Shown here piece after piece: positions 31,073-51,686 of a stretch of 64,000 nt of DNA (position 1 is its first letter; every line of letters begins with the position of its first letter). The stretch covers positions 504 through 64,503 of the forward strand of contig CAIJNK010000011.1 of assembly GCA_903822075.1 (NCBI GenBank). Direction: 5' to 3'. The notes beneath the pieces were generated by a model. That model was not told the DNA's origin, ran no database searches, and saw nothing but the letters and a program-made list of their open reading frames with translations. This stretch comes from an uncultured bacterium. GTDB lineage: Bacteria > Patescibacteriota > Minisyncoccia > Phycocordibacterales > GWA1-40-21. Position numbers and translations under genes: made by a program.

Positions 31073-31129
31073 ATAATTATGTGATTAGATTAATAAATTA
31101 ATAAACGACCGTTCCAGTATAGCATAAAA

Positions 31130-32614
31130 TTACTCCGTGTGTACCTTTATATCCGTCCGCTCATGTTTTAGTTTCAAGAATAGAATAGAAAAGGAACCAA
31201 TAAAGATGACGACGGCGGCCACGAGAAAGACATAATCATAAGCATCCACTTGGGCCTTCAGGATAATAAGAGAAATGTATTTTGAAATGTCCGCCGGCAC
31301 GTGACTATGCAGCCGGCTAAAATTATTCAGAGTTAAAATATTGGTATTAGTCCGGTTATTTAAAATTGTGGCAAAGATGGCAATACCAAAAGCACCAGCA
31401 ATATTTCGGACTAAAGCGAGGATAGATGAGGCCACGCCGATCTCACTCTGCGGTACAACCGAGGCAATAATATTTGTGCGGTGCGACATACCCAAACCAA
31501 GGCCAAAAGCCATAATAGTCAGAGGGATGGTGATGTCGAGAGAACCAGACTTAGGATCCAAATAGCTGAACAAAAAGATGCCGATGGAGGCCACGATCGT
31601 GCTCCAAAAGATAACATAGCGGGCTTGAATCTTGCCGGTAAATCGTCCACCAATGGCCGCGGAGGCCACCATCACAAACGCCATCGGCATAAACAAGAAT
31701 CCCGATTCCGTAGCGGTATAACCAAGAAAAGTCTGAGCAAAAACCGGGATCAAAAAAACGCCACCCATCATCCCCATAAACACCACAAAGTTGTTAAGTA
31801 GGGCGTTCACAAAAGCCGGAATCTTAAAAAACTTGAGATCAATAATCGGTTCCGGTACGCTTTTTTCAATCTTGAGAAAAATACCGGACAAGAGAATCAT
31901 AAAGAAGTAACACGTCAGGCTTTCTGCAGAAAGCCAACCCCAATCAAAGCCTTTGTCCAAAACCAAAACTAAGGCCGAGAGGGCGCCGCCCAAGGTGAGC
32001 GCACCCCACCAATCGAAGAATTTGGAAACTATTTTAGAACGCGATTCGTGGACAAAGTGAAAGGCCATATAGATACCCAAAAGTCCGATTGGCAGATTGA
32101 TTAAAAATACCGACCGCCAGCCAAAATTATCAATTAGCGGCCCGCCGATGAGCGGGCCAAAAACGGCGGCCGCCGCAAAGGAGGATGACCAGATACCGAG
32201 TGCTTGCGCCCGCTCCCTCCCTTCCTTAAAAGTAACGGCGAGAATAGCCATGGCGGTCGGATAATCTGCCGAGCCAGCAATGGCCTGGATTATTCTAAAG
32301 ATGATTAGGGAAGAAAGGTTCCAAGCCAGACCGGCTAAAACGGACCCAAAAATAAAAATCGAAAAACCGATAATATATACTTTTTTCCGGCCAATAGTGT
32401 CTCCAAGTTTTCCCCAAATAGGCACAAAGATGGCATTGGCCAAGATATAGGCAGTGGCAATCCAGCCGGCAGAAGAGACAGTGATATTGAAGTCATTAAT
32501 GATCTTGGGTAACGCCAAGTTTACAATCGTCTGATCCAGACGGCCCAAAAAAGTTCCGATGATTACCGTCAGAAGGATCCACCACCGCAAGTTTGAACTC
32601 CGATTTTCATCCAT
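31130..32614 (-). CDS. MFS transporter, DHA2 (EmrB-like) family, 14 TM
   Basis: 494 aa; MFS motif A (GKLGDTIGRKKV), 14 hydrophobic segments. Confidence 0.85.
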   Translation of the reverse strand: MDENRSSNLRWWILLTVIIGTFLGRLDQTIVNLALPKIINDFNITVSSAGWIATAYILANAIFVPIWGKLGDTIGRKKVYIIGFSIFIFGSVLAGLAWNLSSLIIFRIIQAIAGSADYPTAMAILAVTFKEGRERAQALGIWSSSFAAAAVFGPLIGGPLIDNFGWRSVFLINLPIGLLGIYMAFHFVHESRSKIVSKFFDWWGALTLGGALSALVLVLDKGFDWGWLSAESLTCYFFMILLSGIFLKIEKSVPEPIIDLKFFKIPAFVNALLNNFVVFMGMMGGVFLIPVFAQTFLGYTATESGFLFMPMAFVMVASAAIGGRFTGKIQARYVIFWSTIVASIGIFLFSYLDPKSGSLDITIPLTIMAFGLGLGMSHRTNIIASVVPQSEIGVASSILALVRNIAGAFGIAIFATILNNRTNTNILTLNNFSRLHSHVPADISKYISLIILKAQVDAYDYVFLVAAVVIFIGSFSILFLKLKHERTDIKVHTE

Positions 32615-32642
32615 ATCTTTATATTTGATTTAGCAAAATAAC

Positions 32643-33287
32643 TTACTTAGCAGTGTGGACGGTTATCTTGGCCGATAGGCCGTTTATGAGCTCCGGATAC
32701 TTGGCCACATCAAAACTGACCTTGATATTGAAATTACGGACTGGTCGTTTATCCGAGATGGAAAATACCACGCTGTTATCATTGGAGGTCGGGCTTATCT
32801 CAGACACCACGCCTTCGTAATTTTTCCCCGGAAAAGCATCGACAGTAAAAGTCGCGCGCTCTCCGATCTTTATGACATTTAAACCTTTAGTTTCGTCGAC
32901 AGCTCCCACCACTTTCATTTCTTGATTATCGATGACAGAAACCACAGTTTGTCCTGGCGCGAAATAGTTGCCAATTACCTGTGCGGCGTCGGCCACTATC
33001 CCGGCGGTCTTGGTATAAATAATTTGTGAACCCACCAAGGCCACCGGCGAATTAGCTGAAACTTTTTCGCCTTCAGTCACATAGAGGGCATTAAGAATTC
33101 CGGCAGTCGAACCGGACAGATTTATCATCGGCGCTTCCAGATACGAATTTTCCACCAGAACGGTATTCCGGCTGGCTTGCCAAAAAAGAAAGATCGCTAG
33201 TGAACCAAATATCACCACTATGGCAATGAGACTTTGCAGCCAAGGTTTTTTAAAGATACTTGTTTTATTTGTCTGTTCTATCTCCAT
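32643..33287 (-). CDS. HlyD-family efflux adaptor (short)
   Basis: 214 aa; N-terminal TM anchor then beta-barrel/lipoyl-like adaptor segments. Confidence 0.6.
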   Translation of the reverse strand: MEIEQTNKTSIFKKPWLQSLIAIVVIFGSLAIFLFWQASRNTVLVENSYLEAPMINLSGSTAGILNALYVTEGEKVSANSPVALVGSQIIYTKTAGIVADAAQVIGNYFAPGQTVVSVIDNQEMKVVGAVDETKGLNVIKIGERATFTVDAFPGKNYEGVVSEISPTSNDNSVVFSISDKRPVRNFNIKVSFDVAKYPELINGLSAKITVHTAK

Positions 33288-33292
33288 TGTAT

Positions 33293-34372
33293 TTATTGAT
33301 TAACGCTGCCAGTAAATTCCATCGCTGGTGTATTAGGGACGGCAATTTGTCCCTGACTGACGTAGACTGCAGTGACCACACCATCTCCCGGTGCGACGAT
33401 AATGGTGTTTTCATAAGTGGCGCGAGCAATCTGCAGAGCACCGGAAGCACTGTCCACTTGGGCCTGGGCCGCCGCCACATCCTCCGGTCGAGCCGTTGAA
33501 ACCAAAGCGGTCAACGAAGCGTTAGCTTGATCAAAAGAAGCCTGCGCCAAAGCGATGGCTTGATTCTTAGTCTGTAAAGCCAACTGATAAGCACTGTTAT
33601 TGGCATTATAATTTGCAGCATTTTTGTTTGGTATATCAACACTAAATTCCACGCTAGCCAAAAGCTGTTTGGTTTTATCAAAAGACAAAAATAAGCCGCA
33701 GGTCCCAAGCGGCCGCGGAACATCGGTGATAAACAGCGTCCCCGCCTCGAGACCGGAATAATTTACCGAAATACCGCCACTCGAGCTATAAGTCTTTAAA
33801 GTGTATGTACCTTCATTTTTACATCCATAAGTTCCCGAAACCGTAGGGGCATCATTGGCTCCAAAGTCACTGACACTTTGAGCCTGGAGAGAAGAGTTTA
33901 ATAAAGTTCGATAAGCATTGTCCACTAATATTCCCTGCTGTTTGGTGACTTCATCCAAATTAACTTTAGCCACATTTACGGCGGCGCGAGCCACATCAAC
34001 GGCTGTCCCGGTTGCCCCATTCACGATTTTTTGATAATTAGCGTTAGCTGTTTCGTAAGCCGCCTTGGCCTGAACCAGAAGGCCGGAAGCGTTTCCGGCA
34101 TCAAGGGAAGCCAAAACATCGCCCTTTTTGACTTTATCGCCAACTTTAACGGAAACCAGATTTATCCGCCCGGCGGAGAGAAAACCGAGAGAAATATTTT
34201 TAGTGCTGGAAGCGGTCAGGGCTTGAGTCAGCGATTCGGTATCCGTGTAAATTCCAGTTGCGGTCTTATTAATTTGCCAATAACCAGCCACACCAATAAT
34301 AATGGCGGCCGTTAAGGAAACACCGATGACTTTTTTGGGCTGATTCAGAAATGAAATAAAAATATTTTTCAT
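33293..34372 (-). CDS. HlyD-family periplasmic adaptor subunit
   Basis: 359 aa; anchor, biotin-lipoyl-like hairpin (VKVGDKVKKGDVLASLD), coiled-coil, beta-barrel. Confidence 0.7.
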   Translation of the reverse strand: MKNIFISFLNQPKKVIGVSLTAAIIIGVAGYWQINKTATGIYTDTESLTQALTASSTKNISLGFLSAGRINLVSVKVGDKVKKGDVLASLDAGNASGLLVQAKAAYETANANYQKIVNGATGTAVDVARAAVNVAKVNLDEVTKQQGILVDNAYRTLLNSSLQAQSVSDFGANDAPTVSGTYGCKNEGTYTLKTYSSSGGISVNYSGLEAGTLFITDVPRPLGTCGLFLSFDKTKQLLASVEFSVDIPNKNAANYNANNSAYQLALQTKNQAIALAQASFDQANASLTALVSTARPEDVAAAQAQVDSASGALQIARATYENTIIVAPGDGVVTAVYVSQGQIAVPNTPAMEFTGSVNQ

Positions 34373-34378
34373 ATGATG

Positions 34379-34804
34379 TTATGCGGTTATGATGATTTTA
34401 ATAATACGCTCCAGTGTTCTTCTATCCTTTTGATTCAATTTATGTACCATCTGGTTTAGGATTGACTCTTTGTTTTTTGAAATTGAAATAAAATTATTCT
34501 TCGTGGCACTGGTCAGTACGACAGAAACTATTCGTCGGTCTTTATCATTGTTAAGGCGACGAACCAGATTTTTTTTCTCCATTTCTCTGATTATTTCCGT
34601 CACGGAGGGCGGAGTAACCATGAGGTACTCGGCAATGCTTTTCATGGTTTTCTCACCAGAAACCCCGATAAAATTAAGCACTTCGATCTGAGAAAATGTT
34701 AATTCGTGCTTGATACCCTGACGTTTGATACTTTCCAGGATATTCCGTCTGAAATGAAGCAGTAAATCACCCAGATTTGTTTTTTTATCGTTATTATTCA
34801 TCAC
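34379..34804 (-). CDS. MarR-family transcriptional regulator
   Basis: 141 aa; winged HTH (LTFSQIEVLNFIG...SIAEYLMVTPPSVTEIIREMEKKNLVRR). Confidence 0.8.
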   Translation of the reverse strand: MMNNNDKKTNLGDLLLHFRRNILESIKRQGIKHELTFSQIEVLNFIGVSGEKTMKSIAEYLMVTPPSVTEIIREMEKKNLVRRLNNDKDRRIVSVVLTSATKNNFISISKNKESILNQMVHKLNQKDRRTLERIIKIIITA

Positions 34805-34869
34805 TTGTTTGTTTGCCTAATAGTTAGGTAAACTAAGTATATTCCATTACCATATTCTGTCAAGATAGT

Positions 34870-35985
34870 TTACAAAGTCCTCGCGATCAGTGCCGGAGTA
34901 GCGGTGGCGTTTTCCACCTTAAACCTTATCTCCCCCAGCATCTGACCGGAAACAGTCTCTACTCTTACTCGCCACAAGCCTGGTGCGACAACATGTTCAA
35001 AAGAATACGTGCGAAAGCCTCCTTCCCTCCCGCCGGTAATCGGCAGATCGATCTTGGCCTGATTCACCCAAGTTTTCTTTGTCTCATCGTAATACTGCCA
35101 TTGATGAATAATTTTAGTCACAAAGTTTGCCGGTGAAAAGACGGCACTAAAAACGTACACGGTGTCGCCGGCGATATTATGAAAAACGGGATAGCGGTTA
35201 AAATAATCGGTCCATAACTTTTCTTCGCCTACCGCCGTATAGTTACCATCAGCGGTTCTGGTAATTTCATGATAAACACCTGAGGCTTTAATCGCCAGCG
35301 GTATAGGAGGAATGATATTCAAAAAATACAGAGCGTTCATCAGGATAAAAATACTGGCCAGACTTATTTTTATATAATTATGGCTGTTCTTAAATTTCTC
35401 CAAGGAAAATTTTCTAAGCAGGAGAGTAAATATGAAAATAACCACCAGACTCAAGACCCCGCTCAGGACAAAAAGGTCAGCGCCAAGACGATGGAATAAA
35501 ACTGGCAGAGCAAAAATCAAAAAAAGGTATAGCGATAGAAAAAGAACGCTGATTTGAAAGGTCAACCGAGTGTAATTTTTCTTCCACAGCTCATTACCAA
35601 AAAGCAAGACAAGTAAAAGCAGAATAAAAAGCCAGCTATCGGAAAATGATGTGCTACGCAAGTAAAAAACAAAGAAGGTAGAAAATAGGCCGCCAAAGGC
35701 AAACTGGATGATTAGAGTCAGAAAAAAGTAAAATTTTTCACGTTCTACTGCCGGTAGATTTTTTTGTTCGGCTTTATTCTCGTAATAAGTCAGAGCCAAG
35801 ATGCCAAAACCAGCGACCAGTAAGTGAATAATAATCCAAAAGTTTTCCAACCACATATCCACCCGCGTCAGGGTGAGCGAAGTAAAAATAAAACCGTAAA
35901 TCAAGCCGACGGGTGAAATCCATTTCTCAAATCGCTTATAAAAATCGCCAAATTTATCCAAGATCATTTGGCTATATATTATCAT
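34870..35985 (-). CDS. polytopic membrane protein with C-terminal extracytoplasmic domain
   Basis: 371 aa; about 8 TM helices then a soluble C-terminal region. Last low-GC gene before the island. Confidence 0.4.
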   Translation of the reverse strand: MIIYSQMILDKFGDFYKRFEKWISPVGLIYGFIFTSLTLTRVDMWLENFWIIIHLLVAGFGILALTYYENKAEQKNLPAVEREKFYFFLTLIIQFAFGGLFSTFFVFYLRSTSFSDSWLFILLLLVLLFGNELWKKNYTRLTFQISVLFLSLYLFLIFALPVLFHRLGADLFVLSGVLSLVVIFIFTLLLRKFSLEKFKNSHNYIKISLASIFILMNALYFLNIIPPIPLAIKASGVYHEITRTADGNYTAVGEEKLWTDYFNRYPVFHNIAGDTVYVFSAVFSPANFVTKIIHQWQYYDETKKTWVNQAKIDLPITGGREGGFRTYSFEHVVAPGLWRVRVETVSGQMLGEIRFKVENATATPALIARTL

Positions 35986-36076
35986 AAAATTTTTAAATAA
36001 AAAAAGCGTGGAGCTCGAGGATTGTTTTCACAACCCTACAAACTCCACACTCATCAGGACCAAAGTCCCTAAGGCA

Positions 36077-37252
36077 TCAAGCGGCAGTCGTTTCGAGTGC
36101 TCCCGCTGCGTCATTAAAGACACCGATCACCCACTCGGATGATTTCAGAAGTTCACCGATGGTATCCCCGTGCCGACAGAAACGGGCATCGAATTCAACT
36201 TCGAGCGGCAGACCAGTCATGGCTGACCAGCTCACCCCGGCCCGAATCGTAGCCACCTGATCTTCCACCCACTCCGGCAGACCTTGACCCGGCAAAAAGT
36301 CATTGTCCACGTACTGCGGGAAGTCACCGATTGGCGTACCGCCCTCCACGGACAAGAGCTTGGTAAAGTTCACTCCACCAAGACCGCCGGAATTCAGATG
36401 AATCCGCCCGCCAAAAACGTTGGCGGAAATTGCCTGATTCATGGCGTCCACGAACTTCTGACCGCTACCGCGACTGTGGCAGAACTCTCCCTGCCACTGC
36501 GCAATGTGACCGCCGTAACGAGTGTTGATCTCGTTGATCCCCTTGATCTCCAAGGTAGTGTCCGTGAACACGTCAATGTAGCAGGGATCACCGGCCGGCT
36601 TACCTTCAATGAGAAGGTTTGACCCGTCAATGAAGCCAAACTTCAGGGCGTCCGCCAGAGCGCCACTCAGACCATCGATGATCGTGCGCCACTCTTCGAG
36701 CTGCGGGTTAAGATCATGCCCGAGAAGAACGTTGTCCCCACTGATGACACGACCCCAACGGATTCCATCCGGACCGGTCCAGTAGATCACGCTGCCTTCA
36801 TGTCCTTCCATCTTGACCCGTCGCGAAGCCATAAAGCTCAGGACCATCATGTCATGAGCCAACTGACGTCGTTCGGGATCCGGATTAATGAAGGCGCCAT
36901 AGTCACTCCCCGGCAGACCAAACCCAGGCGGAATAATCCGCCCAATCCGAGGGTAACTACCGGCATCAGCTCCTTCCATCCACTCGTCGAGGCTAATCGC
37001 CCGGGGATTATTCCATTTGGCGCTTTTGCCGACCTGAGTATCTTCCGTCGGCACACACAGTTCATGCCACCAATGTGCCGACACGGCAATCGTAATGCCG
37101 TACTTGGCCAGGAGCACCTCGTTCAAAGCAGCAATCGCTGCCAAGGCTTCCTTCATGGTTGTGAAGCCACCGGCCGTCGGATTCCCGAAAGCCATAATCT
37201 GCTTCAACATATGCCAACTGCCCACCAACAATTTCAATACGGGTTTATGCAT
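36077..37252 (-). CDS. sugar isomerase of the xylose-isomerase-like TIM-barrel superfamily, L-rhamnose isomerase-like
   Basis: Start moved to internal ATG with strong SD (GGAAGAGGAGAG-N5-ATG). Motifs SAHWWHE, ASRRV, VIYWTGPDG and GGRIHLNSGG resemble recalled RhaA/L-RhI signatures. About 57% GC. Confidence 0.5.
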   Translation of the reverse strand: MHKPVLKLLVGSWHMLKQIMAFGNPTAGGFTTMKEALAAIAALNEVLLAKYGITIAVSAHWWHELCVPTEDTQVGKSAKWNNPRAISLDEWMEGADAGSYPRIGRIIPPGFGLPGSDYGAFINPDPERRQLAHDMMVLSFMASRRVKMEGHEGSVIYWTGPDGIRWGRVISGDNVLLGHDLNPQLEEWRTIIDGLSGALADALKFGFIDGSNLLIEGKPAGDPCYIDVFTDTTLEIKGINEINTRYGGHIAQWQGEFCHSRGSGQKFVDAMNQAISANVFGGRIHLNSGGLGGVNFTKLLSVEGGTPIGDFPQYVDNDFLPGQGLPEWVEDQVATIRAGVSWSAMTGLPLEVEFDARFCRHGDTIGELLKSSEWVIGVFNDAAGALETTAA

Positions 37253-37351
37253 GTTTCTCTCCTCTTCCTTGTTTTTCTTTTTTCTTCTTTCCCATCCAAA
37301 CAAAACCAAATCACAGCAGAAAAATCAGTGCTTCACCTCCATATTTTATAA

Positions 37352-37408
37352 CTCCCCACCTCATGTGAAAGAGCGCTTATCTGGGGAAAAAGCTAACATT
37401 AATTTAGG
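37352..37408 (-). promoter_or_regulatory. conserved ~55-nt 5' leader element (copy 1) upstream of the rhamnose-isomerase-like gene
   Basis: TCCCCACCTCATGTGAAAGAGCGCTTATCTGGGGAAAAAGCTAACATTAATTT, near-identical to 39459..39515. Confidence 0.5.
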
Positions 37409-37441
37409 CGCTTGGCAAATTTTGATTGTAAAAATAACAAT

Positions 37442-37472
37442 AAAAAAACGGGTAGAGATTACTCTCTACCCG
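37442..37472 (-). terminator. intrinsic terminator downstream of fucI
   Basis: A-run then GGGTAGAGATTACTCTCTACCC on the plus strand, giving hairpin plus T-run on the minus strand. Confidence 0.55.
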
Positions 37473-37501
37473 CGCGTTGAGTATTACCTCATTGCTTCGT
37501 A

Positions 37502-39304
37502 TCAGCCGTACACCGGTCCCAGTTTCTCGCAGGCGCGGAAGTCATTCCCGCCGCAACGATCCCAGAACGTCGGCCGGAAGATATCCGCCTTCGGTATGTT
37601 GTGCAGATCCACCGGGATGCGCAACATAGCATTCACCGTGATGAGATCCCCCCCGATCAGACCGACGGAGTTCGCATCATGATTAGGCCCGATCTGTGTC
37701 ATATAGTCATATGACGACATGTCCCGCGGTTTCCAAAACGACTCTGGCCAAGTGCCGTCAGTAACCCGACTGATATGGTCCGCCACCTTTATGGGCAGCT
37801 CCACCGTCTCACCTTCCACCACGGAACAAGTCAGCATGTCGCCGGCCATGTTGTAGCGGTAGGCGGTCATCGGAATGTCACCCGGTGTTCGGTAATGACT
37901 GGACAAACCATCACCCGGAAAATACTCCAGGTTTGCCGCCATGTACTCTGTATGTGTTGTCGCTCGCTTCACGAGCTCATGCTGTAGATCCGTATTACTA
38001 CGAAGTACAGCCATGGACTGTTGAATTGTCAGATCCTTGAGGCCGGTAAACTCCCGCACCAGACTCAGAACGTCAATACTGTAATCGAGCGCCCCAGCTC
38101 CGGAATTACGTTTGTCAATGAGCCCTTTCGGACACACCGCACTCACGTCAACCCCAGTGGCTTTTTGGATACTCGCAACCGTCCAGTTCGTCCTGATGTC
38201 GGCAAAGAGCTGTGGCATGCCACCACTCAGCAAAGTTGCCATCATCATTCCGAGCCCGTTTTTGCAGTCATTTTCCGTGGCCACAGTGTGCGGCGCGCGG
38301 AAACCATTCCAATCAAACGAACTGCAGAGTATGGACTCGGTCAGATCGAAGTTCGGATACAAGTCCGTCCAATCGCGCTGCCCTTGAGTCCCGGCCGCAA
38401 TGGCGTTGAAGCCCTGGGCGTGTTCCACATCAGCCTTGAAACCTTGCTTCCTGCCCACTGTCGGATTAGCCAAGAGAGGATTCCCGATCATCATATCTCT
38501 GACAATCAGGGTCATCTTCAAGCAATCCCGAAGCAAAGCTTCCGTCACTTGCGGTCGAGCCTGCTGTGCCGGAATTGGCGCCCAGTTGAAACGGAATTGG
38601 TCCTTCATGAACATGCAGGCCCTCTCGAGCTCCTCGTGATCATAAAAACCGCGATCCATTCGTCCCCGGATAGCCACCATGTCCACGGATTTGGTCCCCA
38701 ACCCAAAATATTTGAGCATCGTATTTCGGTCAACGTCCGAACCAATGATACCCATGGACACCCCGCCAACGGACAAGTAATTCTTGCCCCGGATCTCGGC
38801 CACCGCCGCCGCACACCGAGCAAAACGGAGCAGCCGTCCACGCACATACGGCGTAAAGTCGTCTGCCTCGTCTTCCAGGTTTTCATTATAGATGCAGAAG
38901 ATCGGACGCTTTTTCTCGTCCATCGCCGCACAGAAGGCCTTGAGTTCCACCGCGCCCGGTCGGTCGGTCTGATTCAAGCCGTAAGCCGCAAACTGCCATT
39001 CCGAGCTGCCCAAGCCCATAATCGCGCTCATAAGTTCGTCACTATAGGCCCAAGACCGGCTCACAAAAATGACAGACGACACGCCGGCCTTTTGGAATTT
39101 GACTTGGGTTAAAGCGCCGGACCGCACACCGTACACAATCTCCGGCGCCACGACAGTCTGCACCCTTGTCCCATCGGGCAAGAACACATTGTTCGCAATG
39201 AGATTGGCCACCTTATCAGCCAACGCCCACGTTGCCACCGAGTTTGCCTCAAAGGCACCCGTCCGCCACTGGCACGATGCCAATAGTGGGAATTGTGCCA
39301 ACAA
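37502..39304 (-). CDS. fucI: L-fucose isomerase (apparent 5' frameshift)
   Basis: 600-aa ORF with strong similarity to FucI (DRPGAVELKAF, LLRFAR, SVGGVSMGIIGS, WTDLYPNFD, SSFDWNGFRAPHTVATEND, MLRIPVDLHN, FRACEKLGPVYG). The conserved N-terminal peptide (IPTIGIVPVADG, compare E. coli LPKIGIRPVIDG) is encoded in the -1 frame over the first codons. Confidence 0.8.
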   Translation of the reverse strand: MLAQFPLLASCQWRTGAFEANSVATWALADKVANLIANNVFLPDGTRVQTVVAPEIVYGVRSGALTQVKFQKAGVSSVIFVSRSWAYSDELMSAIMGLGSSEWQFAAYGLNQTDRPGAVELKAFCAAMDEKKRPIFCIYNENLEDEADDFTPYVRGRLLRFARCAAAVAEIRGKNYLSVGGVSMGIIGSDVDRNTMLKYFGLGTKSVDMVAIRGRMDRGFYDHEELERACMFMKDQFRFNWAPIPAQQARPQVTEALLRDCLKMTLIVRDMMIGNPLLANPTVGRKQGFKADVEHAQGFNAIAAGTQGQRDWTDLYPNFDLTESILCSSFDWNGFRAPHTVATENDCKNGLGMMMATLLSGGMPQLFADIRTNWTVASIQKATGVDVSAVCPKGLIDKRNSGAGALDYSIDVLSLVREFTGLKDLTIQQSMAVLRSNTDLQHELVKRATTHTEYMAANLEYFPGDGLSSHYRTPGDIPMTAYRYNMAGDMLTCSVVEGETVELPIKVADHISRVTDGTWPESFWKPRDMSSYDYMTQIGPNHDANSVGLIGGDLITVNAMLRIPVDLHNIPKADIFRPTFWDRCGGNDFRACEKLGPVYG

Positions 39305-39458
39305 GCATTCGGTTTGTCACCGTAAACGTTCTCGGAATTATTATTTCACCTGTCTCGCTCATTCTTCTGTCCTCTTTTCTTTTTTCTACCGGTTTGAGAT
39401 TACAATCAAAAGCAAAAAACGCCAACAAAATATCTTAAGTTTTCCTCCTTTGTTTTGA

Positions 39459-39515
39459 CTCCCCACCTCATGTGAAAGAGCGCTTATCTGGGGAAAAAGC
39501 TAACATTAATTTGAC
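39459..39515 (-). promoter_or_regulatory. conserved ~55-nt 5' leader element (copy 2) upstream of fucI
   Basis: CCCCACCTCATGTGAAAGAGCGCTTATCTGGGGAAAAAGCTAACATTAATTT in the same position and orientation relative to fucI as copy 1 is to its gene. Confidence 0.5.
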
Positions 39516-39568
39516 ATTATGGCAAATCTAAAAAATATTATTATATATTTTTTGTCGAAATTTTGACA

Positions 39569-39598
39569 TAAAAAAACCGGCGTCAGAGTGACTGCCGG
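39569..39598 (-). terminator. intrinsic terminator downstream of 39643..39900
   Basis: CCGGCGTCAGAGTGACTGCCGG hairpin preceded by A8 on the plus strand (T-run on the minus strand). Confidence 0.55.
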
Positions 39599-39642
39599 TC
39601 CGTTCCCTCTAAAAGAAAGAACTATATTTTCGCCTGCTGCGC

Positions 39643-39900
39643 TTATTTCTGCGGAGCGGCGCCGGTGGTTGCCGCCCGGTGCTTCCGATAGGAGCTCAGA
39701 ATGCTCCGACCGGCCGCCCTGACCGCCGATGATCCCTTACCGGTCTTGACCCAGTCCGTGAAGGCCAAGCCTTCGGACTTCACTTCTTCGAGGGTCGTGC
39801 TGATGGCCTTGCCCACTTGGCGTTTGGCCCCTGCCCACTCCCGCCCGATCTGTCCTCCACATCCTGCGCCCGCCGTTCCGGTCCCTGTTTTCGTTGCCAT
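39643..39900 (-). CDS. small basic Gly/Ala-rich hypothetical protein
   Basis: 85 aa; own promoter (TTGCAT-17-TATAGT) and terminator; no homology recognised. Confidence 0.3.
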   Translation of the reverse strand: MATKTGTGTAGAGCGGQIGREWAGAKRQVGKAISTTLEEVKSEGLAFTDWVKTGKGSSAVRAAGRSILSSYRKHRAATTGAAPQK

Positions 39901-39942
39901 GGTACCCTTTCCTTTCTCTATTGTTACTTACCGACTGAACCT

Positions 39943-39975
39943 AGACTATACCATACTTTACAATTTTATGCAAAT
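39943..39975 (-). promoter_or_regulatory. sigma70-like promoter for 39643..39900
   Basis: Minus strand TTGCAT-17 nt-TATAGT. Confidence 0.4.
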
Positions 39976-39979
39976 AAAA

Positions 39980-40010
39980 GCGCCCACTGATTCATCATCA
40001 AAATGGGCGC
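39980..40010 (-). terminator. intrinsic terminator after the ABC ATPase gene
   Basis: GCGCCCA-loop-TGGGCGC followed on the minus strand by TTTTATTT. Confidence 0.5.
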
Positions 40011-40046
40011 AGTCTCTTCGATAAAGAACTCCTCCTCAGCTCTGCA

Positions 40047-41042
40047 TTATGTCACTATGTCCCGCTCGTGGAAGGTACCATTCAGATGATCCTCTTCCAA
40101 TGACAAGGACTGGAACGACTTGGGATGCTCCAAGTTGAACTCGGCCACATGGCGCCGGTGATTGGGGTTGAACCCCGTATCCAGCACCTGTTTCATCAGA
40201 GCCCCAAACTCGGCGGTCTTCTTGACCTCCGTGGACATCGCATGCTTATCAAGCGGTATGTCCATAACGATCCGTGACCCCGAGAGTTTACTTCCGTCAT
40301 CCTGGTCTGATGTCCAGTACTGCGACAAGACGAGTAGACGTGAAGACAGGAAGACCGCTTCCTCCAAATCATGAGTGACAAAGATGACCGTCATCTTATG
40401 TTCCTCCCACAACTGTGAAATCAGCACCTGCATATCTTCACGCGTTCCCGGATCCAGTGCCCCAAACGGCTCGTCCATACATAACACCTTCGGCATGCCG
40501 AACATGTCAATCGTGACGAGGGTTTGAGCGATGGCCACCCGCTGCCGCATTCCGCCGGAAAGTTCCTGCGGATATTTATTTGCGGCGTCGGCCAGGCGCA
40601 TACGTTCCAGATATTTCATCGTGATCAGGTTGGCTTCCCGACGCCACTTTGGACGCCAGAGGTCATGGAGGTCCGCTTGGAACTCCAATCCCAGCCGAAC
40701 GTTTTTGGCCACCGTCAGATTCGGCAGCAGGGTGTATTGTTGAAACACCACCCCGCGTTGCTTATCCGGGAAACCGACCGGCCGACTAAAGACGTCGAAG
40801 TGCTTGGCCTGCTGGACCCTCTCTTGTCCAGTGATGAGCCTCAAGAGTGTGGACTTGCCACAACCCGAAGGTCCCACCAGACAAATGAATTCACCAGACT
40901 CCGACAGCAAATCGATATTCGTCAGCACCCGTTTGGTTCGGCCCGTTTCCGTATCCGGATAACCGTGATACGCGCTCTCGATGTGCAGAGCTTCCTCCCC
41001 GGTGATAACCGGTTTTGCTTTTACGCCATTTGTTCCGTTCAC
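40047..41042 (-). CDS. ABC transporter ATP-binding protein (NitT/TauT family) with C-terminal extension
   Basis: Walker A LVGPSGCGKST, signature LSGGMRQRVAIAQTL, Walker B LCMDEPFGALD, H-loop. Start set to GTG preceded by AAGGAG, 10 nt after the permease stop; the track ORF extends further to 41150. About 100-aa C-terminal extra domain. Confidence 0.8.
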   Translation of the reverse strand: MNGTNGVKAKPVITGEEALHIESAYHGYPDTETGRTKRVLTNIDLLSESGEFICLVGPSGCGKSTLLRLITGQERVQQAKHFDVFSRPVGFPDKQRGVVFQQYTLLPNLTVAKNVRLGLEFQADLHDLWRPKWRREANLITMKYLERMRLADAANKYPQELSGGMRQRVAIAQTLVTIDMFGMPKVLCMDEPFGALDPGTREDMQVLISQLWEEHKMTVIFVTHDLEEAVFLSSRLLVLSQYWTSDQDDGSKLSGSRIVMDIPLDKHAMSTEVKKTAEFGALMKQVLDTGFNPNHRRHVAEFNLEHPKSFQSLSLEEDHLNGTFHERDIVT

Positions 41043-41052
41043 GTTTGTCTCC

Positions 41053-41892
41053 TTACTTGTCCTCGGGTTTGTACCAAGGGAAACATTTTCGGCGAATGAT
41101 CTGTAACACCAGGTCCATGCTATACGCAATGGCTGAGATGTACAGTACATACGGGATGATCAGAGACATGTTCATGTATCGCTGTTGCAAGTAGATGCGA
41201 TAACCCAACCCTTCGGTCGAGGCCACCGCTTCCGCCGCAATAACGAATATCCAAACCTGTCCCAAATTTACCCGCACCAACTCAATCAACTGGGGCAGTA
41301 TCTGTGGAGACACTACCCGAACGACAATCTGCGATTGCGACGCCCCGAGAGTTTGTGCCTTGACGATCAACTCGTTTGGCACTTTCTCCACGGCTTGTTG
41401 GATGCTCCGCACTAACGGTATGCCGACACCGAATACAATGAGGAAGATTTTCGATCCCTCACCGATCCCCATAAAAACCAAGATGATTACCAAAATGGCT
41501 AATGGATTGATGTTCGAACACAACGTTAAGATGGGTGTAAAAATGGATTTGGCACTGGGGAACACCCCAATAACCATACCCAGAATATAACCCAGCACGG
41601 CCGACACCCCAACACCAATGCCTAAACGGCAAAGGCTCGATTTAGTATCCGTCCAAAACAAGACTTGCTCAGTTCGTTTATCTGGAACCGTAGCTATCTC
41701 CTTCATGGACTCATACATCTGCGACGCTCCAGGCATGAGCTTGTCCTGCGGATTATCCACGTGCCGAATGTACGACGCCGTAAAATATCCGCCAATCAAG
41801 AGGACCAGAGGCAAAAGCCCCAGCACCCTCGAGAACACCGGCCCTGGTCGGGCATTGATGCCCCAAAACATTGGAATTCTAACCTTTTTCAC
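41053..41892 (-). CDS. ABC transporter permease (NitT/TauT family)
   Basis: 279 aa; 6 TM helices, EAA-like loop. Confidence 0.75.
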   Translation of the reverse strand: MKKVRIPMFWGINARPGPVFSRVLGLLPLVLLIGGYFTASYIRHVDNPQDKLMPGASQMYESMKEIATVPDKRTEQVLFWTDTKSSLCRLGIGVGVSAVLGYILGMVIGVFPSAKSIFTPILTLCSNINPLAILVIILVFMGIGEGSKIFLIVFGVGIPLVRSIQQAVEKVPNELIVKAQTLGASQSQIVVRVVSPQILPQLIELVRVNLGQVWIFVIAAEAVASTEGLGYRIYLQQRYMNMSLIIPYVLYISAIAYSMDLVLQIIRRKCFPWYKPEDK

Positions 41893-41955
41893 GCTATTTT
41901 CTCCCTTCCTTTCATACTTCTGACAAAGTGCCCCTACCCTAAATATCTCAATACA

Positions 41956-41983
41956 TTATACACAAAAATTACTTCTTGTCAAG
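41956..41983 (-). promoter_or_regulatory. sigma70-like promoter for the permease-ATPase unit
   Basis: Minus strand TTGACA-16 nt-TATAAT. Confidence 0.45.
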
Positions 41984-41994
41984 GACTCAGGCAT

Positions 41995-42025
41995 AAAAAA
42001 GCTCCCCCGTTTTCTTGGGGGGAGC
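41995..42025 (-). terminator. intrinsic terminator after the substrate-binding protein gene
   Basis: GCTCCCCCC-GTTTTCTT-GGGGGGAGC with A-run before it on the plus strand (T-run after it on the minus strand). Confidence 0.55.
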
Positions 42026-42053
42026 TTACGCTCGAACTTGAGCAGAAGGGCTC

Positions 42054-43130
42054 TTAGAGCTTACCTTCGGCTGCCGCTTTCATGTAGGTTGTGGTGTACG
42101 TGATTTTCACGTTCTTGGGATCACCCAGAACGGTTGCGTCCGGGAACTTGATACCGATCAGATCGGCGCTCTTCGCTCCCTGGCCCAGAAGACCCTGCGC
42201 AAAGCAGAAGTCCATCACTTGCCGACACGCTGTCTTATTCTCCGGGCTGGCCGCAAACGTTGCGCCGTCCTTGGGAGAGTAATACATAAATGTCGTCTTG
42301 AGTTGGGCCTTGAACTCAGCCACTGTGCCACCGGCAAACTTCGCCATGGCTTCAATCGCTTTGTCCGTCTGACTGCCCTGACCATTCATGACTGCCATCG
42401 TCTCGTACCAGGCGCCGACCAAGGCTTTCTTGACCGCTTCCGGCGCATCCTTCCGAATCACCATCAAATCCTGAATTTCTCCAGGGATCTCTGATGAGTC
42501 AAAGACCAAGGTGACATTCGGCAGATTACGGATGTTCATGAGTATTGGGTTCCAGGTGACACACGCCCCTTTGGAACCGGAACTCGCGAAGGTCGCGCCG
42601 ATATTTGCATCAGAAGTGTTAACTTCCTTTACATCGGAATTCTTCATTCCATGTTTCTGCAAACCACGCGACAAAGCGTAACTCGAAACGGAACCCTGAA
42701 CGATAAGTACGTCGCGGCCTTTGATGTCGGTGAATTTCTTTCCGTTCATCAGACCGACGCCGTCATTACCATTACTGTAATCGCCGACCACTTCCACCTC
42801 CGAATCCACTCCACCGACGGCGGGCATGTCCAGCGCATCCATGATAGTCATGGCGCACCCGACGGCTTCACCGGAGGTGTACTGATTGATCGAAGTGACG
42901 TAGTCATTGATGAGCACAACGTCGATCTTGACGCCGAGCTTGTCCGCCCATTTCTTCATGATGCCGGAGTCCACCATATACTGATAGGGCTCCCAGCCCG
43001 TGTAGTGGGACCAGACGTACCGATAGGTCTTGTCCGTCGACGCTTGCTTGTCTGCCGCAACGGCAGGACTCGTAAACACCGACGCCAGAACCGCCAAACC
43101 AACCACGCACAATGTAATGACTTTCTTCAT
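42054..43130 (-). CDS. ABC transporter substrate-binding protein (NMT1/SsuA/TauA-like)
   Basis: 358 aa; signal peptide (ASVFTSPAVAADK); NMT1/THI5-like periplasmic binding fold features. Confidence 0.65.
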   Translation of the reverse strand: MKKVITLCVVGLAVLASVFTSPAVAADKQASTDKTYRYVWSHYTGWEPYQYMVDSGIMKKWADKLGVKIDVVLINDYVTSINQYTSGEAVGCAMTIMDALDMPAVGGVDSEVEVVGDYSNGNDGVGLMNGKKFTDIKGRDVLIVQGSVSSYALSRGLQKHGMKNSDVKEVNTSDANIGATFASSGSKGACVTWNPILMNIRNLPNVTLVFDSSEIPGEIQDLMVIRKDAPEAVKKALVGAWYETMAVMNGQGSQTDKAIEAMAKFAGGTVAEFKAQLKTTFMYYSPKDGATFAASPENKTACRQVMDFCFAQGLLGQGAKSADLIGIKFPDATVLGDPKNVKITYTTTYMKAAAEGKL

Positions 43131-43259
43131 GACGAACTACTCCTTTTCTTTTGCTTCTTTTTCTGCGTTACGTTTTACCTCGGGGAGCAACCCTGTGCTC
43201 CCCGAGGCCTTTCTCTGTTCCTTTTTCTTTCTTTTCTCTGTCTCCCCACGTACCACGGT

Positions 43260-44477
43260 TTAGGCCGCGGCCGTCGTCGGCTCGAGGTCGAGGGTGATCG
43301 CCGGACGTTTCGCGTTACCGCGTTCCATCCGTTCAATCTTCTTTTCGGCCTCATCCGCCATCCGCTTCATCTCCACCATCCGCTGCGCCATCTGAGGCAG
43401 AGCGTCCTGTTTGAACTTGGCCATCTGTTCGAAGGCCGAGTCCAGATCGGCATAAACCGACTTCAATGCTTCCATACTGATGGACTGGGTGGCGGACATC
43501 TTGAAAATTTCCGCTCCCTGAGTCTTGAGCTGCCGCGCGTTTTGCACCATGAGCTCCGCAGTGGTCTGATCCACCGCCTGAACCGAGCGCAAAACCATCC
43601 GCTGTTTCGCCAAGGCCATAGCCAAGACGACAGCGATTTCCAGCGCTCTGACCGTAATGGTCTCGCACCGCTTAGCGCCACGGATAAGCTCACGATTCGT
43701 CCGAATCGCAAACTCATACGACATGACACCCTGCTGGTTGACGGTCAGATTCTGCTGCAGGTCACCGATCCGCTGACGCAAGGTGAAGAGAATTTCTTCC
43801 TCCATAAACTTGCGCTGCTCACTGCCCGCTTCCATCTTCTCGATGGCGGCGGAGAGTTTCTCGTTGACCAACATGAGCGTCTGGATGACTTTCTGCAACC
43901 GCAGAATTTCCGAACGCATCACGATCTGGTCAGCCCGCAAGGTCTCATTGTCTCGCAACAATTCCTTGGCGCCTTCCCGGATCTGCATGACGATCGAATC
44001 AATCACCCCACCCGCGCTTTGCCACCTGGTGAAGTACGAGTTCATGGTCGTGCCCACGCCTGGAATCCAAGCAAAGGCCCTTCCAACGCCGCCCGGCTCC
44101 AAGAGCTTGTAGCGGTTCGGATTGATTTTGTCCACGTTGACCTTCAGGTCAATCAGGGACTTGGCCACCGAGCTGCCTTCCGGCTGGGAAGCCAGAACGC
44201 GGATCTGATCCTTGAGCAAACCGCTCTTGCGCGCCAAGGTTTCTTCAACATTGGCACCGGCATTCTCGACGGCGGTCCGGACTTCCTGCTGATGTGCAGG
44301 ATCCGTAACATCACCGGTGAGAAGCGACGCAGTCCATTCATCGGCCATCTTGACGACGGCTGGATCAACCTGCTGTGACGCAAGCTGATTGGCGCCCACA
44401 AAACCAAGATCACTCTGGATCTGGCTGGCCTGCGGAACCGCTAACGGCTTCGTGTCTTCCTGAACTTGAACTGGCAT
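43260..44477 (-). CDS. telA: toxic anion resistance protein, TelA family
   Basis: 405 aa; entirely alpha-helical/coiled-coil. Sequence pattern and length match the TelA/KlaA/YaaN family, supported by the adjacent XpaC-like gene. Confidence 0.7.
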   Translation of the reverse strand: MPVQVQEDTKPLAVPQASQIQSDLGFVGANQLASQQVDPAVVKMADEWTASLLTGDVTDPAHQQEVRTAVENAGANVEETLARKSGLLKDQIRVLASQPEGSSVAKSLIDLKVNVDKINPNRYKLLEPGGVGRAFAWIPGVGTTMNSYFTRWQSAGGVIDSIVMQIREGAKELLRDNETLRADQIVMRSEILRLQKVIQTLMLVNEKLSAAIEKMEAGSEQRKFMEEEILFTLRQRIGDLQQNLTVNQQGVMSYEFAIRTNRELIRGAKRCETITVRALEIAVVLAMALAKQRMVLRSVQAVDQTTAELMVQNARQLKTQGAEIFKMSATQSISMEALKSVYADLDSAFEQMAKFKQDALPQMAQRMVEMKRMADEAEKKIERMERGNAKRPAITLDLEPTTAAA

Positions 44478-44512
44478 GATACTGTCTCCTTTTTTTCTTA
44501 CGTTTGTTTTCG

Positions 44513-45367
44513 TTACACGGACAAGGTCAGGGACTTCCCCTGGCCGGTGCGTGCCCTCTCAATCAGAGTCACCAACTCACCCATCGCCGAATCCAGATTA
44601 CCCGAAGCCGCTGAGGACTTTGTCCCGCGGATACTGGTAGCCGCTCTTCCCGCCGCATCGATCGCCGTCAGAGCCTGCTCGTTTTGAGCGAGTAAGGCAT
44701 CAACTTCAACCACACTTTCATCAAAGAGCCGCGCTCTTTCCTGAAGTGCCTTTAAAGTTATTGTATCTGACTGCCGAGGAGCTTGAAGAGCTTGGAGGGC
44801 TTTTATCCGCCCCTCCAAATCCTGACGATCAATATCGTCCATATTCGTCAGGATGGTAACGATGCGGTTCAAGTTTTCCAGTCCGGAGTTATAGACTTGC
44901 TCGGCCGTTACTTTATAACGACTGAAGGTCATCTCCGTCACCGAAAGAACCCGTTCGAGCACCGCCAACAGATTTTGAAACTTCTCTTCAAACTGGGGTA
45001 CTTGATCGTAACCCTGTTTGCATTTCAGTTTCTTCAAATCCGTACCGAGCGTGGCGAGCTTTTTCTCCTTCATGATTTCAAACTGTTCGTGGAGTTTCGC
45101 GTAATGCTGTTGCATATACTCGTCCTTCCCGCCGAAAAATTTGAGTGCCCAATTGGTGGCGCCGAATCCGACACCGCCAACGGCAATGATTCCAATAAGC
45201 AAGGCCGAGGCTGGGGAAAAAACTCCCACCGCCACAGCGCCTACTGTCCCTATGGCTAGTGGCCACAAGGTCAAAGGATGCTGAAGCGTTTCGGCTAAAG
45301 CATCTTTTCGGACCGCCCCGTCGCTGAAATCCAGCTCACTTGGGCCGCCCTCTGGAGTTTTCTTCAT
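44513..45367 (-). CDS. XpaC-like membrane protein (5-bromo-4-chloroindolyl phosphate hydrolysis protein family)
   Basis: 284 aa; two N-terminal TM helices then coiled-coil. Classic partner of TelA-like (YaaN) genes. Confidence 0.5.
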   Translation of the reverse strand: MKKTPEGGPSELDFSDGAVRKDALAETLQHPLTLWPLAIGTVGAVAVGVFSPASALLIGIIAVGGVGFGATNWALKFFGGKDEYMQQHYAKLHEQFEIMKEKKLATLGTDLKKLKCKQGYDQVPQFEEKFQNLLAVLERVLSVTEMTFSRYKVTAEQVYNSGLENLNRIVTILTNMDDIDRQDLEGRIKALQALQAPRQSDTITLKALQERARLFDESVVEVDALLAQNEQALTAIDAAGRAATSIRGTKSSAASGNLDSAMGELVTLIERARTGQGKSLTLSV

Positions 45368-45439
45368 GAATTATCCTTTCATTTACACTGTATTTCCTAC
45401 ATGAACGTCAAAGACCATTCATACTTTTTCTACCAGACA

Positions 45440-45467
45440 GTATACACGAAATATTAAAATTGTCAAG
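45440..45467 (-). promoter_or_regulatory. sigma70-like promoter (TTGACA-16-TATACT) for the XpaC-like gene
   Basis: Minus strand TTGACAATTTTAATATTTCGTGTATACT; near-identical to the element at 51687..51715. Confidence 0.5.
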
Positions 45468-45481
45468 TCTTTCCAAGCATT

Positions 45482-45518
45482 AAAAAATACCGTACTCCCC
45501 TCGTGGAAAGTACGGTAT
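45482..45518 (-). terminator. intrinsic terminator after the AAA+ ATPase gene
   Basis: ATACCGTAC-loop-GTACGGTAT with A5 before it on the plus strand. Confidence 0.55.
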
Positions 45519-45541
45519 TAGACCTCGTAATCAGGCTCTCT

Positions 45542-47164: not shown

Positions 47165-47224
47165 AGTCTTTACCCTTTCTTATAACTGACTGACACGAGT
47201 TCATCTCAAAAAACTTCTGCCATA

Positions 47225-47256
47225 TGTATAGCATTTATTATTGAAAAAGTCAAGAC
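47225..47256 (-). promoter_or_regulatory. sigma70-like promoter (TTGACTTTT-N-ATGCTATACA) for the AAA+ ATPase gene
   Basis: Minus strand TTGACTTTTTCAATAATAAATGCTATACA. Confidence 0.5.
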
Positions 47257-47354
47257 TAAATTTTTTATTAAAAAATGCCCAAATATGTAATAAAAGAACC
47301 CGTCCTGCCATCACAGCAAAACGGGTTCGCACTAACAACTTCAGACACGAAACC

Positions 47355-48926: not shown

Positions 48927-48996
48927 GATTCTCTCCTTTTCTTCTGCTTTTTCTTCAGTCAAAGACCACTTCAACCACCAAAAAAATCTGGTGCAA

Positions 48997-49026
48997 GTAT
49001 ACACCCTTATTAAAGTTTTGTCAAGA
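48997..49026 (-). promoter_or_regulatory. sigma70-like promoter for 47355..48926
   Basis: Minus strand TTGACA-17 nt-TATACT. Confidence 0.45.
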
Positions 49027-49030
49027 CAAT

Positions 49031-49060
49031 AAAAAACCCCGCCAGCACATGCTAGCGGGG
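49031..49060 (-). terminator. intrinsic terminator after the vWA gene
   Basis: AAAAAACCCCGCCAGC-ACAT-GCTAGCGGGGCTC; same AAAACCCC...GGGGCTC skeleton as the cassette terminators at 14.7 and 15.85 kb. Confidence 0.55.
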
Positions 49061-49084
49061 CTCGACTTCACCTCATCATAGAAC

Positions 49085-49804
49085 TCAGTACGTGTCGGCT
49101 TCGGCCATCACACTCTGCAACCCTTCCTCCAGATCCTTCGGACTCTGTGCGTCCTTGTAGATCGTTCGGCCGGGTTGGTTTAATGAATGCTCTGGCCCTA
49201 TCTCGAAACCGATGGTATGAATCACCACCGGCGATTCTCGGAGAATCAGGTTCACCATGTCGGTGGGGTCGTAGCCCATATTGGCCTCCCCGTCCGTCAC
49301 GATCACCAGATGATATTCTCCGTAGCCGAGCTGCCGCCGAGCTTGTGCTTTCAACGACTCGTAACCGATCTTTACAGCCTCCGACAGAGGTGTCCCTCCG
49401 TCAGCCGAAGCCGCATTGACCACCGCAAAGAATTCCTTGCGGTTGTTAACTCCGAGCGGCAACCGCTCAGACAGGCCGTGACCATCAAAGATAGCCAAGC
49501 CCAGACCGGTGTCCTCCGGTATTGATTTGCCGAACTGATTGATGGCCTCTTTGGCCGCCGCAATCTTCCGACCCACCATACTGCCCGAGCAGTCAAAGAT
49601 CAGGTAGATATTCTTGCGCAGAAGATTATCCTCGAGCTTAACGCCTTTGGTATCATCCGCCTTGATCCACGTATCCTTGATCCGCCCCACAGTCTGTTTG
49701 ACCGGAGCAATCGGCGCCGATGGACTTTCCACCGGCCCGCAACCGGCACTGGCGACAATCAGCGCCAAGCCGATCAAAACGAGTTGGCAGACTTTCTTCA
49801 TCAT
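49085..49804 (-). CDS. von Willebrand factor A domain lipoprotein
   Basis: 239 aa; signal peptide with lipobox (LIVASAGC), MIDAS motif DCSGSM, conserved Thr/Asp (VIVTDGEAN). Confidence 0.75.
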   Translation of the reverse strand: MMKKVCQLVLIGLALIVASAGCGPVESPSAPIAPVKQTVGRIKDTWIKADDTKGVKLEDNLLRKNIYLIFDCSGSMVGRKIAAAKEAINQFGKSIPEDTGLGLAIFDGHGLSERLPLGVNNRKEFFAVVNAASADGGTPLSEAVKIGYESLKAQARRQLGYGEYHLVIVTDGEANMGYDPTDMVNLILRESPVVIHTIGFEIGPEHSLNQPGRTIYKDAQSPKDLEEGLQSVMAEADTY

Positions 49805-51528: not shown

Positions 51529-51686
51529 TCCGACTCCTTTTTCTCTGTTTCTATTTCGAACGTTTTTCCGACTTGCGTTACTCAAATTTATCTCCTAATC
51601 CCGACCGCTATTTGAGAAACACCTCCTTCTTACTATATTCTATGATTTGGCTATCAAAGAACGTTGATTTATTAATCTGTTAGATA

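Follow-up and report, generated by a model that had tools for sequence, protein, structure and literature searches.

A Repeated 55-Nucleotide Element Upstream of Two Isomerase-Type Genes of a Patescibacteria Genome as a Candidate Case of Promoter Reuse

The subject of this report is a stretch of DNA of 64,000 nt (below, the window) from an uncultured bacterium of the Patescibacteriota (GenBank assembly GCA_903822075.1, contig CAIJNK010000011.1). Two adjacent genes on its minus strand, one coding for a 391-aa protein with a xylose/rhamnose isomerase fold and the other resembling fucI, the gene of L-fucose isomerase, are each preceded by the same 55-nt sequence. The evidence leans towards reading this element as a duplicated promoter and 5'-leader module, i.e., as an instance of promoter reuse.

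Two Isomerase-Type Genes and Their Transcription Units

The 391-aa protein has no sequence match in Pfam, NCBIfam or the Protein Data Bank (PDB). Its AlphaFold model (AF2), built from 49 homologues, reached a pLDDT of 95.4, and a Foldseek comparison of the model with the PDB retrieved class-I xylose isomerases (XI; E 1e-11, TM 0.66, ~15% identity) as well as the L-rhamnose isomerase of P. stutzeri (E 1e-9). As modelled, the protein is of the XI-type (beta/alpha)8 TIM-barrel sugar isomerase fold. One member of its family matches PF01261 at E 0.0012, while none of the 10 more distant members scanned (0/10) carries a Pfam domain. The residues invariant in the family are E216-x-K218, E256-x-x-H259, D316-x-D318 and E353. 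Their spacing resembles that of the metal-binding and catalytic residues of XI (E181/K183, E217/H220, D255/D257 and D287).

All homologues of the protein come from metagenome-assembled genomes of Patescibacteria and from metagenomes, and the family is small, comprising 43 cluster representatives (E <=0.001) among 1.84 billion. The gene thus defines a rare, unannotated family of the xylose isomerase fold confined to Patescibacteria.

The fucI-like product contains all three Pfam domains of L-fucose isomerase, and its NCBIfam equivalog score of 490 bits lies below the cut-off of 775. Its closest relatives (~70% identity) belong to the Verrucomicrobia, Lentisphaerae, Kiritimatiellia and Planctomycetota. 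Since these are bacteria of the Planctomycetes-Verrucomicrobia-Chlamydiae (PVC) type and the host is a member of the Patescibacteria, the sequence points to acquisition of fucI from PVC-type bacteria by inter-phylum horizontal transfer into a genome of the candidate phyla radiation (CPR).

The reading frame of this gene is interrupted. From the ATG at 39362 it runs to ...IGIVPVADG and meets a TGA at 39251-39249, so that it is broken after codon ~35; it continues in another frame as RTGAFEAN..., where homologues read PVADGRTGAYE. At this place, where a homologue has GAC GGA CGG ACG GGG, 8 nt of a short (GACG)n tract have been deleted from the window. The lesion is identical in all independent assemblies, hence it is considered real and not a sequencing error. 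Judged from the sequence, fucI is probably a pseudogene or the source of an N-terminally truncated product.

An earlier note on this DNA, made from the sequence alone, took both genes for 6-deoxyhexose isomerases. The description of the pair as two sugar aldose-ketose isomerases is reasonable, but the assignment of the 391-aa gene to rhamnose isomerase has no sequence match behind it and, with the fold known from a model, is not established; the fucI product, in turn, scores below the cut-off and is frameshifted. The two proteins are unrelated to each other (BLASTP E = 1.0) and differ in fold and family. As the note had remarked, no kinase or aldolase is found among the open reading frames (ORFs) of at least 120 aa in the window. 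No sugar-type regulator (LacI, DeoR, GntR, AraC or ROK) is present in the window either, in keeping with the note's placement of the regulator outside it.

Intrinsic terminators, each a strong hairpin with a U-tract, lie behind all three genes of the region, i.e., the two isomerase genes and a gene for an 85-aa protein upstream of the second repeat copy (fold z from -3.7 to -7.7; Table 1). Each isomerase gene is hence a transcription unit of its own, and the separate termination described earlier holds. Unlike at these terminators, no terminator or attenuator hairpin with a U-tract was called within the element or the leaders.

Structure and Position of the Repeat

The element is an exact direct repeat of 55 nt occurring in two copies in 64 kb, and the match extends to 58/60 nt when taken more widely (37346-37405 vs 39453-39512). 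The 52-mer singled out in the earlier note has exactly two occurrences (37354-37405 and 39461-39512 on the plus strand), where shuffled sequences lead one to expect 0; a sensitive short-word search of the window found no third or partial copy of at least 13 nt. The copies lie 2.1 kb apart, in the same orientation, 5' of each of the two adjacent genes, just as had been claimed. The note quoted the antisense of the element, as both genes lie on the minus strand; in the gene sense it reads AAATTAATGTTAGCTTTTTCCCCAGATAAGCGCTCTTTCACATGAGGTGGGGAGT.

The likeness of the two upstream regions is not confined to the exact block. An 8-mer, ATTTGCCA, is common to both copies at the same offset, 7 nt farther upstream, so the gene-sense layout with this box included is ATTTGCCA-N7-AAATTAATGTTAGCTTTTT-CCCCAGATAAGCGCTCTTTCACATGAGGTGGGGAG. 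The regions are colinear over ~150 nt, from ATTTGCCA to a purine-rich tract before the ribosome-binding site (RBS), with an alignment score of 70 vs 37 for the next best intergenic pair in the window. Outside the exact block the identity is ~60%, which exceeds that of shuffled sequences and of other upstream pairs (p ~0.004).

Table 1. Coordinates of the genes, repeat copies and associated signals in the window.
Feature	Position	Strand	Remarks
391-aa gene of the xylose/rhamnose isomerase fold (unk391)	36077-37252	minus	rare Patescibacteria-only family
fucI-like gene, putatively of PVC origin	37502-39362	minus	8-nt deletion near 39254-39269
Repeat copy 1	37351-37405	minus	exact 55 nt; -99..-153 from ATG 37252 of the XI-fold isomerase gene
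Repeat copy 2	39458-39512	minus	exact 55 nt; -96..-150 from ATG 39362 of fucI
ATTTGCCA box, copy 1	37413-37420	minus	TTGCCA 37413-37418, putative -35, 17 nt upstream of TAGCTT; sub-score 7.0 bits
ATTTGCCA box, copy 2	39520-39527	minus	TTGCCA 39520-39525, putative -35
Putative extended -10 (TGtTAGCTT), copy 1	37390-37398	minus	hexamer 37390-37395; predicted transcription start ~37381-37385
Putative extended -10 (TGtTAGCTT), copy 2	39497-39505	minus	predicted transcription start ~39488-39492
Shine-Dalgarno-like GAGGTG, copy 1	37357-37362	minus	inside the conserved block; second motif GGAGG at 37336-37340
Shine-Dalgarno-like GAGGTG, copy 2	39464-39469	minus	inside the conserved block; second motif AGGAGG at 39444-39449
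Remainder of leader 1	37253-37350	minus	U-rich tract, purine-rich tract, RBS; colinear with leader 2, ~60% identity
Remainder of leader 2	39363-39457	minus	colinear with leader 1
Terminator of the 391-aa gene	36004-36052	minus	z -7.7; at the island edge
Terminator of fucI	37448-37473	minus	z -5.4; paralogous copy at 52772-52797
Terminator of the 85-aa gene upstream of copy 2	39574-39601	minus	z -3.7

Promoter-Like Signals in the Element

The gene for the sigma70 factor of the organism lies within the window (16417-17616), and the promoters of the window are stereotyped and close to the consensus (TTGAC[AT]-16/17-TAtAcT, mostly with an upstream TG). A matrix was built from 18 strong promoters of this kind, and its scan revealed no strong promoter in either isomerase intergenic region. 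The best candidate common to both regions is TTGCCA-17-TGtTAGCTT, scoring 5.2 bits in total: its -35 hexamer contributes 7.0 bits, the TG is present, and the -10 hexamer is poor, at -1.7 bits. The 5' ~20 nt of the block are best read, on this sequence basis, as the spacer and extended -10 of a weak sigma70-type promoter, the -35 being supplied by the separate ATTTGCCA box. The transcription start site (TSS) would then lie ~7 nt downstream of the -10, in CCCCAG.

Two observations lend this reading some support. The pattern ATGTTAGnnT occurs 5 times in the window against 1.65 expected, and 4 of these sites stand close upstream of a gene and on its strand, two at a distance of 6 nt from an ATG, in the manner of leaderless promoters; the heptamer ATGTTAG thus recurs as an apparent extended -10 directly upstream of two other genes. 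In a paralogous terminator-promoter intergenic region (52644-52820), the place equivalent to that of the candidate is occupied, to within 3 nt, by a strong promoter.

Several points weigh against this interpretation. The promoter call is weak, with 5.2 bits vs 14-23 bits for the obvious promoters of the window, it ranks 192nd of ~128,000 positions, and a generic promoter scan did not call it. The block of identity is shifted downstream of what a pure promoter would occupy: half of the spacer is unconserved, and ~35 transcribed nt are conserved, a hint that the transcribed part has a function or that a conversion tract was placed arbitrarily. Conservation can lend the promoter no confirmation, since the upstream regions of orthologues display no significant similarity (z <3), and the search for further copies covered 64 kb of the genome.

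Elsewhere in the window, the upstream regions of pheS and of a methyltransferase gene (14650-14725 and 15811-15892, minus strand) have ~75 nt in common, comprising a terminator and a promoter. The extended -10 of these genes (ATGTTAGGAT or ATGTTAGAAT) stops 6 nt short of the ATG, which points to leaderless mRNAs. Motifs of alternative sigma factors or sigma54 and an integron attC site were rejected by eye for the element, as no consensus matches were seen. Leader-peptide ORFs (one of 12 aa inside the block and two, of 17 and 21 aa, from the ATG in CACATGAGG) were discarded likewise: no Shine-Dalgarno (SD) sequence precedes them, and no peptide is conserved.

A Probable Duplicated Promoter-Leader Module

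The sequences suggest that an entire promoter-leader module exists in two versions, whose 55-nt core is the same to the last nucleotide. TTGCCA (-35), the 17-nt spacer and TGtTAGCTT (extended -10) would constitute a weak promoter of the housekeeping sigma factor, giving each gene a leader of ~130 nt, the first ~35 nt of which would be the same in both. With a promoter, leader, ORF and terminator of its own, each gene would operate independently. The module may have been copied within an island of ~18 kb, whereby the acquired fucI and the neighbouring XI-fold gene would have come under the same signal; the activity of the promoter and the direction of copying are what we infer from this layout.

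The perfect identity is unlikely to stem from selection on the expression of fucI, since this gene is broken; a recent copy or a patch of gene conversion appears likelier. The identity would thus reflect recency and not selection acting position by position.

Other intergenic modules of the island are also found in duplicate. The terminator of fucI and that of the gene 52821-53765, at 52772-52797, are identical at 41/45 positions (37431-37475 and 52755-52799, minus strand), and in the stem a G-C pair is replaced by A-T in a compensatory manner. This degree of identity combined with the compensatory change indicates that a terminator module was duplicated within the island. A second pair of reused promoters, 34/37 nt identical, is located on the minus strand at ~45433-45469 and ~51680-51716, upstream of the unrelated island genes 44513-45367 and 49801-51585; its sequence is GACTTGACAAT(T/A)TT(A/T)ATATTTCGTGTATACT(G/A)TCT.

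With a copied promoter-leader on one side of fucI and a copied terminator on the other, the foreign ORF is bracketed by expression signals of the native style. This suggests that acquired ORFs in the reduced genomes of Patescibacteria may be fitted with native signals by local copying of intergenic modules.

Occurrence of the Element Outside the Window

The element was sought upstream of ~20 orthologues of the 391-aa gene, retrieved from collections of metagenomes and genomes or by contig look-up, and no significant similarity was found (z <3). The earlier note had named absence upstream of orthologous genes as an outcome that would speak against a regulatory element. Absence is what was found, but as a test it is weak, because the nearest orthologue is only 70% identical in protein. 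A resemblance to the promoter of locus L024 (ATTTGTCA-N7-ATTTTAATGGTATTGT) was dropped as a candidate homologue, at z 0.7-1.9.

The element was not found upstream of 3 close PVC fucI homologues either, hence the idea that it arrived together with fucI from a PVC donor was rejected. A core 20-mer has no match in the genome or viral contig collections, and an 86-nt region submitted to blastn has none in phage or plasmid records. A miniature inverted-repeat transposable element or another dispersed intergenic repeat was set aside as a candidate: the 64 kb contain two copies, neither of which shows terminal inverted repeats or a target-site duplication, and the collections gave no matches.

Competing Explanations

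The repeat might also be a functionless footprint of the recent duplication, conversion or recombination by which the island was assembled, or a member of a dispersed repeat family with further copies beyond the window. This is judged unlikely, although a number of facts agree with it. Zero substitutions in 55 nt beside flanks of ~60% identity fit a recent patch, and the duplication of other intergenic modules in the same island is in line with such an origin. In the essentially clonal population nothing displays ongoing constraint, fucI is already broken, and a Logan assembly breaks inside the repeat. A bare footprint, however, would not explain why the copies stand at equal distances from the start codons and in the sole plausible promoter position of two intergenic regions otherwise devoid of promoters, nor why the separate ATTTGCCA box has been kept at the spacing proper to a -35. 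The dispersed-repeat variant is opposed by the lack of terminal inverted repeats and target-site duplications and by the absence of copies from the other 62 kb of the window, from any fetched locus and from the genome, viral, phage and plasmid collections.

The earlier note proposed an operator or an RNA leader of a fucose/rhamnose regulon. This proposal gained no ground: there is no Rfam match, structure, dyad, third copy or conservation in orthologues to sustain it. In its first form, which is considered improbable, the element would be or contain an operator to which a sugar-responsive transcription factor binds over -10 to +35, controlling both isomerase genes as members of a small regulon. 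The deviant -10 and the unusually long leaders among near-consensus promoters are of the kind often seen at regulated promoters, the perfect identity covers the first part of the transcribed region, a frequent site of repressor binding, and both gene products are sugar isomerases. The sequence nevertheless lacks the expected architecture. It contains no dyad or spaced half-sites, just 6-bp arms 23 nt apart and an 8-bp direct repeat (7/8) 19 nt apart. The imperfect inverted repeat emphasized earlier does exist (TCCCCA...TGGGGA, the arms just mentioned), but it is unremarkable, with a fold z of -0.5 in the gene sense and -1.5 on the plus strand. An operator would need far fewer than 55 identical nt, the window has no third copy, and regulators of the LacI, DeoR, GntR, AraC and ROK types are missing from it. 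The element is also missing upstream of the orthologues and of the PVC fucI genes, one of which has an AraC gene close by and yet no similar site; moreover, fucI, one of the proposed targets, is probably a pseudogene.

In its second form, the leader would be a cis-regulatory RNA, like a riboswitch, a thermometer or a 5' stem-loop, controlling access to the RBS or mRNA stability. This is more doubtful still. Both leaders are colinear and carry SD-like motifs at matching places; RNAalifold folds both so that the U-rich tract pairs with the purine-rich one ahead of the RBS, both partners being changed in 4 of the pairs, and a CCCCA/UGGGG stem is possible at the extreme 5' end. Yet U:A/G pairings between such tracts arise easily and are non-specific, and two sequences with an identical core cannot carry an argument from covariation. 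The 5' stem would not be transcribed if the TSS is the A of CCCCAG. Rfam returned no match at the gathering threshold for the whole window or at E <=10 for 37150-39700, folding compared with shuffles gave z of -0.48, -1.2 and +0.19, and the leader is not conserved in orthologues.

The SD-like motifs of the transcribed part deserve separate mention. In both leaders GAGGUGGGGAG is followed by GGAGG ~10 nt later; GAGGTG would lie ~20-25 nt after the predicted TSS, with GGAGG ~20 nt beyond it. In copy 2 no ATG, GTG or TTG follows the SD-like motif at 4-12 nt; copy 1 offers a 5-codon ORF at a spacing of 14 nt alone. SD-like motifs far upstream of genes are not rare in the window. That the transcribed ~35 nt with the paired motifs represent an undescribed sugar-responsive leader or operator of a stand-alone module of two isomerases seems a long shot, and a regulatory role for the transcribed part, though conceivable, has no direct support. 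If true, it would be a rarity among CPR genomes, a metabolic module with regulation of its own, here on a genomic island of a Patescibacteria episymbiont, and a sugar-responsive leader would provide a handle on gene regulation in organisms where almost none is known.

Relation to Known Systems

The closest counterpart of the duplicated promoter-leader module is found among the putative mobile promoters (PMPs). In the survey by Matus-Garcia, Nijveen and van Passel (2012; commentary PMC3575422), a PMP is defined by a stretch of 50 nt or more, identical to at least 80%, that lies within -150..-50 of the start codons of genes with non-paralogous coding sequences; more than 4,000 families are reported, mostly pairs, and the choice between selection and recency is left open there. 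The isomerase pair displays 55/55 and 58/60 identical nt, 52 nt of the block lie inside -150..-50 in both copies, and the proteins are unrelated by BLASTP, so in identity, position and unrelatedness of the products it falls within the published definition. Shared with PMPs are the similar upstream stretch of at least 50 nt in one genome, the unrelated genes, the prevalence of pairs, the function left open and the lack of an Rfam match. The present case differs in that the copies are 2.1 kb apart on adjacent genes, within a Patescibacteria island, in that homology of lower identity runs through the whole leader, and in that a matching duplicated terminator flanks one of the genes. On this comparison, the repeat, itself real, would be a fairly ordinary instance of promoter reuse, one more pair of the PMP kind.

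The Correia elements, ERIC and REPIN (cited in PMC3575422) are likewise intergenic repeats from which unrelated genes obtain promoters or terminators. The element resembles them in this respect but differs in lacking terminal inverted repeats, a target duplication and any sign of transposition, and in being seen in two copies. With the operators of sugar regulons (FucR, RhaS/RhaR, DeoR- or LacI-type) and with sugar-responsive leaders it has in common that a cis sequence is shared by two sugar-catabolic genes; it differs by the absence of a dyad or half-sites, of a nearby regulator, of conservation across species and of further members of a regulon.

The SD-like GAGGUGGGGAG in the transcribed part brings to mind STAB-SD, the 5' mRNA stabiliser of cry3A in Bacillus thuringiensis (Agaisse and Lereclus 1996, as summarised in PMC4113751), and might act as a ribosome-binding stabiliser of the mRNA 5' end of this type. 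The two are alike in having an SD-like sequence near the (here predicted) 5' end of a long leader, ~110 nt before the true start, with no start codon after it. They differ in that the likeness is here one of sequence alone and serves as a lead, the 5' end being a prediction and 30S binding and the involvement of RNase J being unsupported; genes for 16S rRNA and RNase J are absent from the window. Taken by itself, a stabilising role of the conserved transcribed part is, by this analogy, conceivable but rather improbable.

Genomic Island and Its Surroundings

By its RpoB the organism falls within the Patescibacteria/Paceibacterota. In two relatives with 92-94% identical RpoB (L043 and L044), the gene for a PIF1 helicase is directly followed by a DUF2914 gene, and the DNA of both aligns to positions 55555-53877 of the window and then to 35942-34910. 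This adjacency and the gap in the alignment indicate that 35986-53875 is an inserted island of ~17.9 kb. Its G+C content of 52%, against 42% on either side, changes abruptly at 36000, and both isomerase genes with both copies of the element are situated at one of its edges. Besides the isomerases, the cargo of the island includes an ABC transporter with NMT1-like binding proteins, TelA, an AAA ATPase and proteins with OmpA and VWA domains; neither an integrase nor a tRNA gene was seen in it.

The arrangement of the island is the same in all assemblies of the organism, its first gene always adjoins PIF1, and no alternative genomic context was found in these assemblies. An independent assembly differs from the window by 1 SNP in 13 kb, located outside the repeat region; the population is thus nearly clonal, which makes its sequence variation uninformative on constraint. 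Short metagenome contigs with the 391-aa gene alone (loci L004-L007, window 35972-37472) end in the flanking terminator hairpins, at ~37465 and ~36057, and a Logan contig assembled with k=31 ends 30 nt into the 55-nt repeat. Since these ends fall in hairpins or in the repeat, they are considered assembly effects and no evidence of alternative arrangements. The island, the PVC-type fucI that was seemingly domesticated and then broken, and the rare XI-fold family may deserve more attention than the repeat.

Next to the island, an efflux block of the composition MarR-HlyD-HlyD-MFS (31100-34850) is also missing in both close relatives (L043 and L044), which marks it as a second lineage-specific insertion. 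Farther away, a RhuM-family gene (20475-21545) lies between dnaG and rpoC in a patch of low G+C content (20-22 kb, 36%); the relatives carry different genes at this position, so it may be another small insertion. Near the start of the window (141-2330), five tandem genes code for small proteins similar to pilins of type IV secretion systems (PF18895, TrbC/VirB2), and a 40-nt block is common to the upstream regions of the first two.

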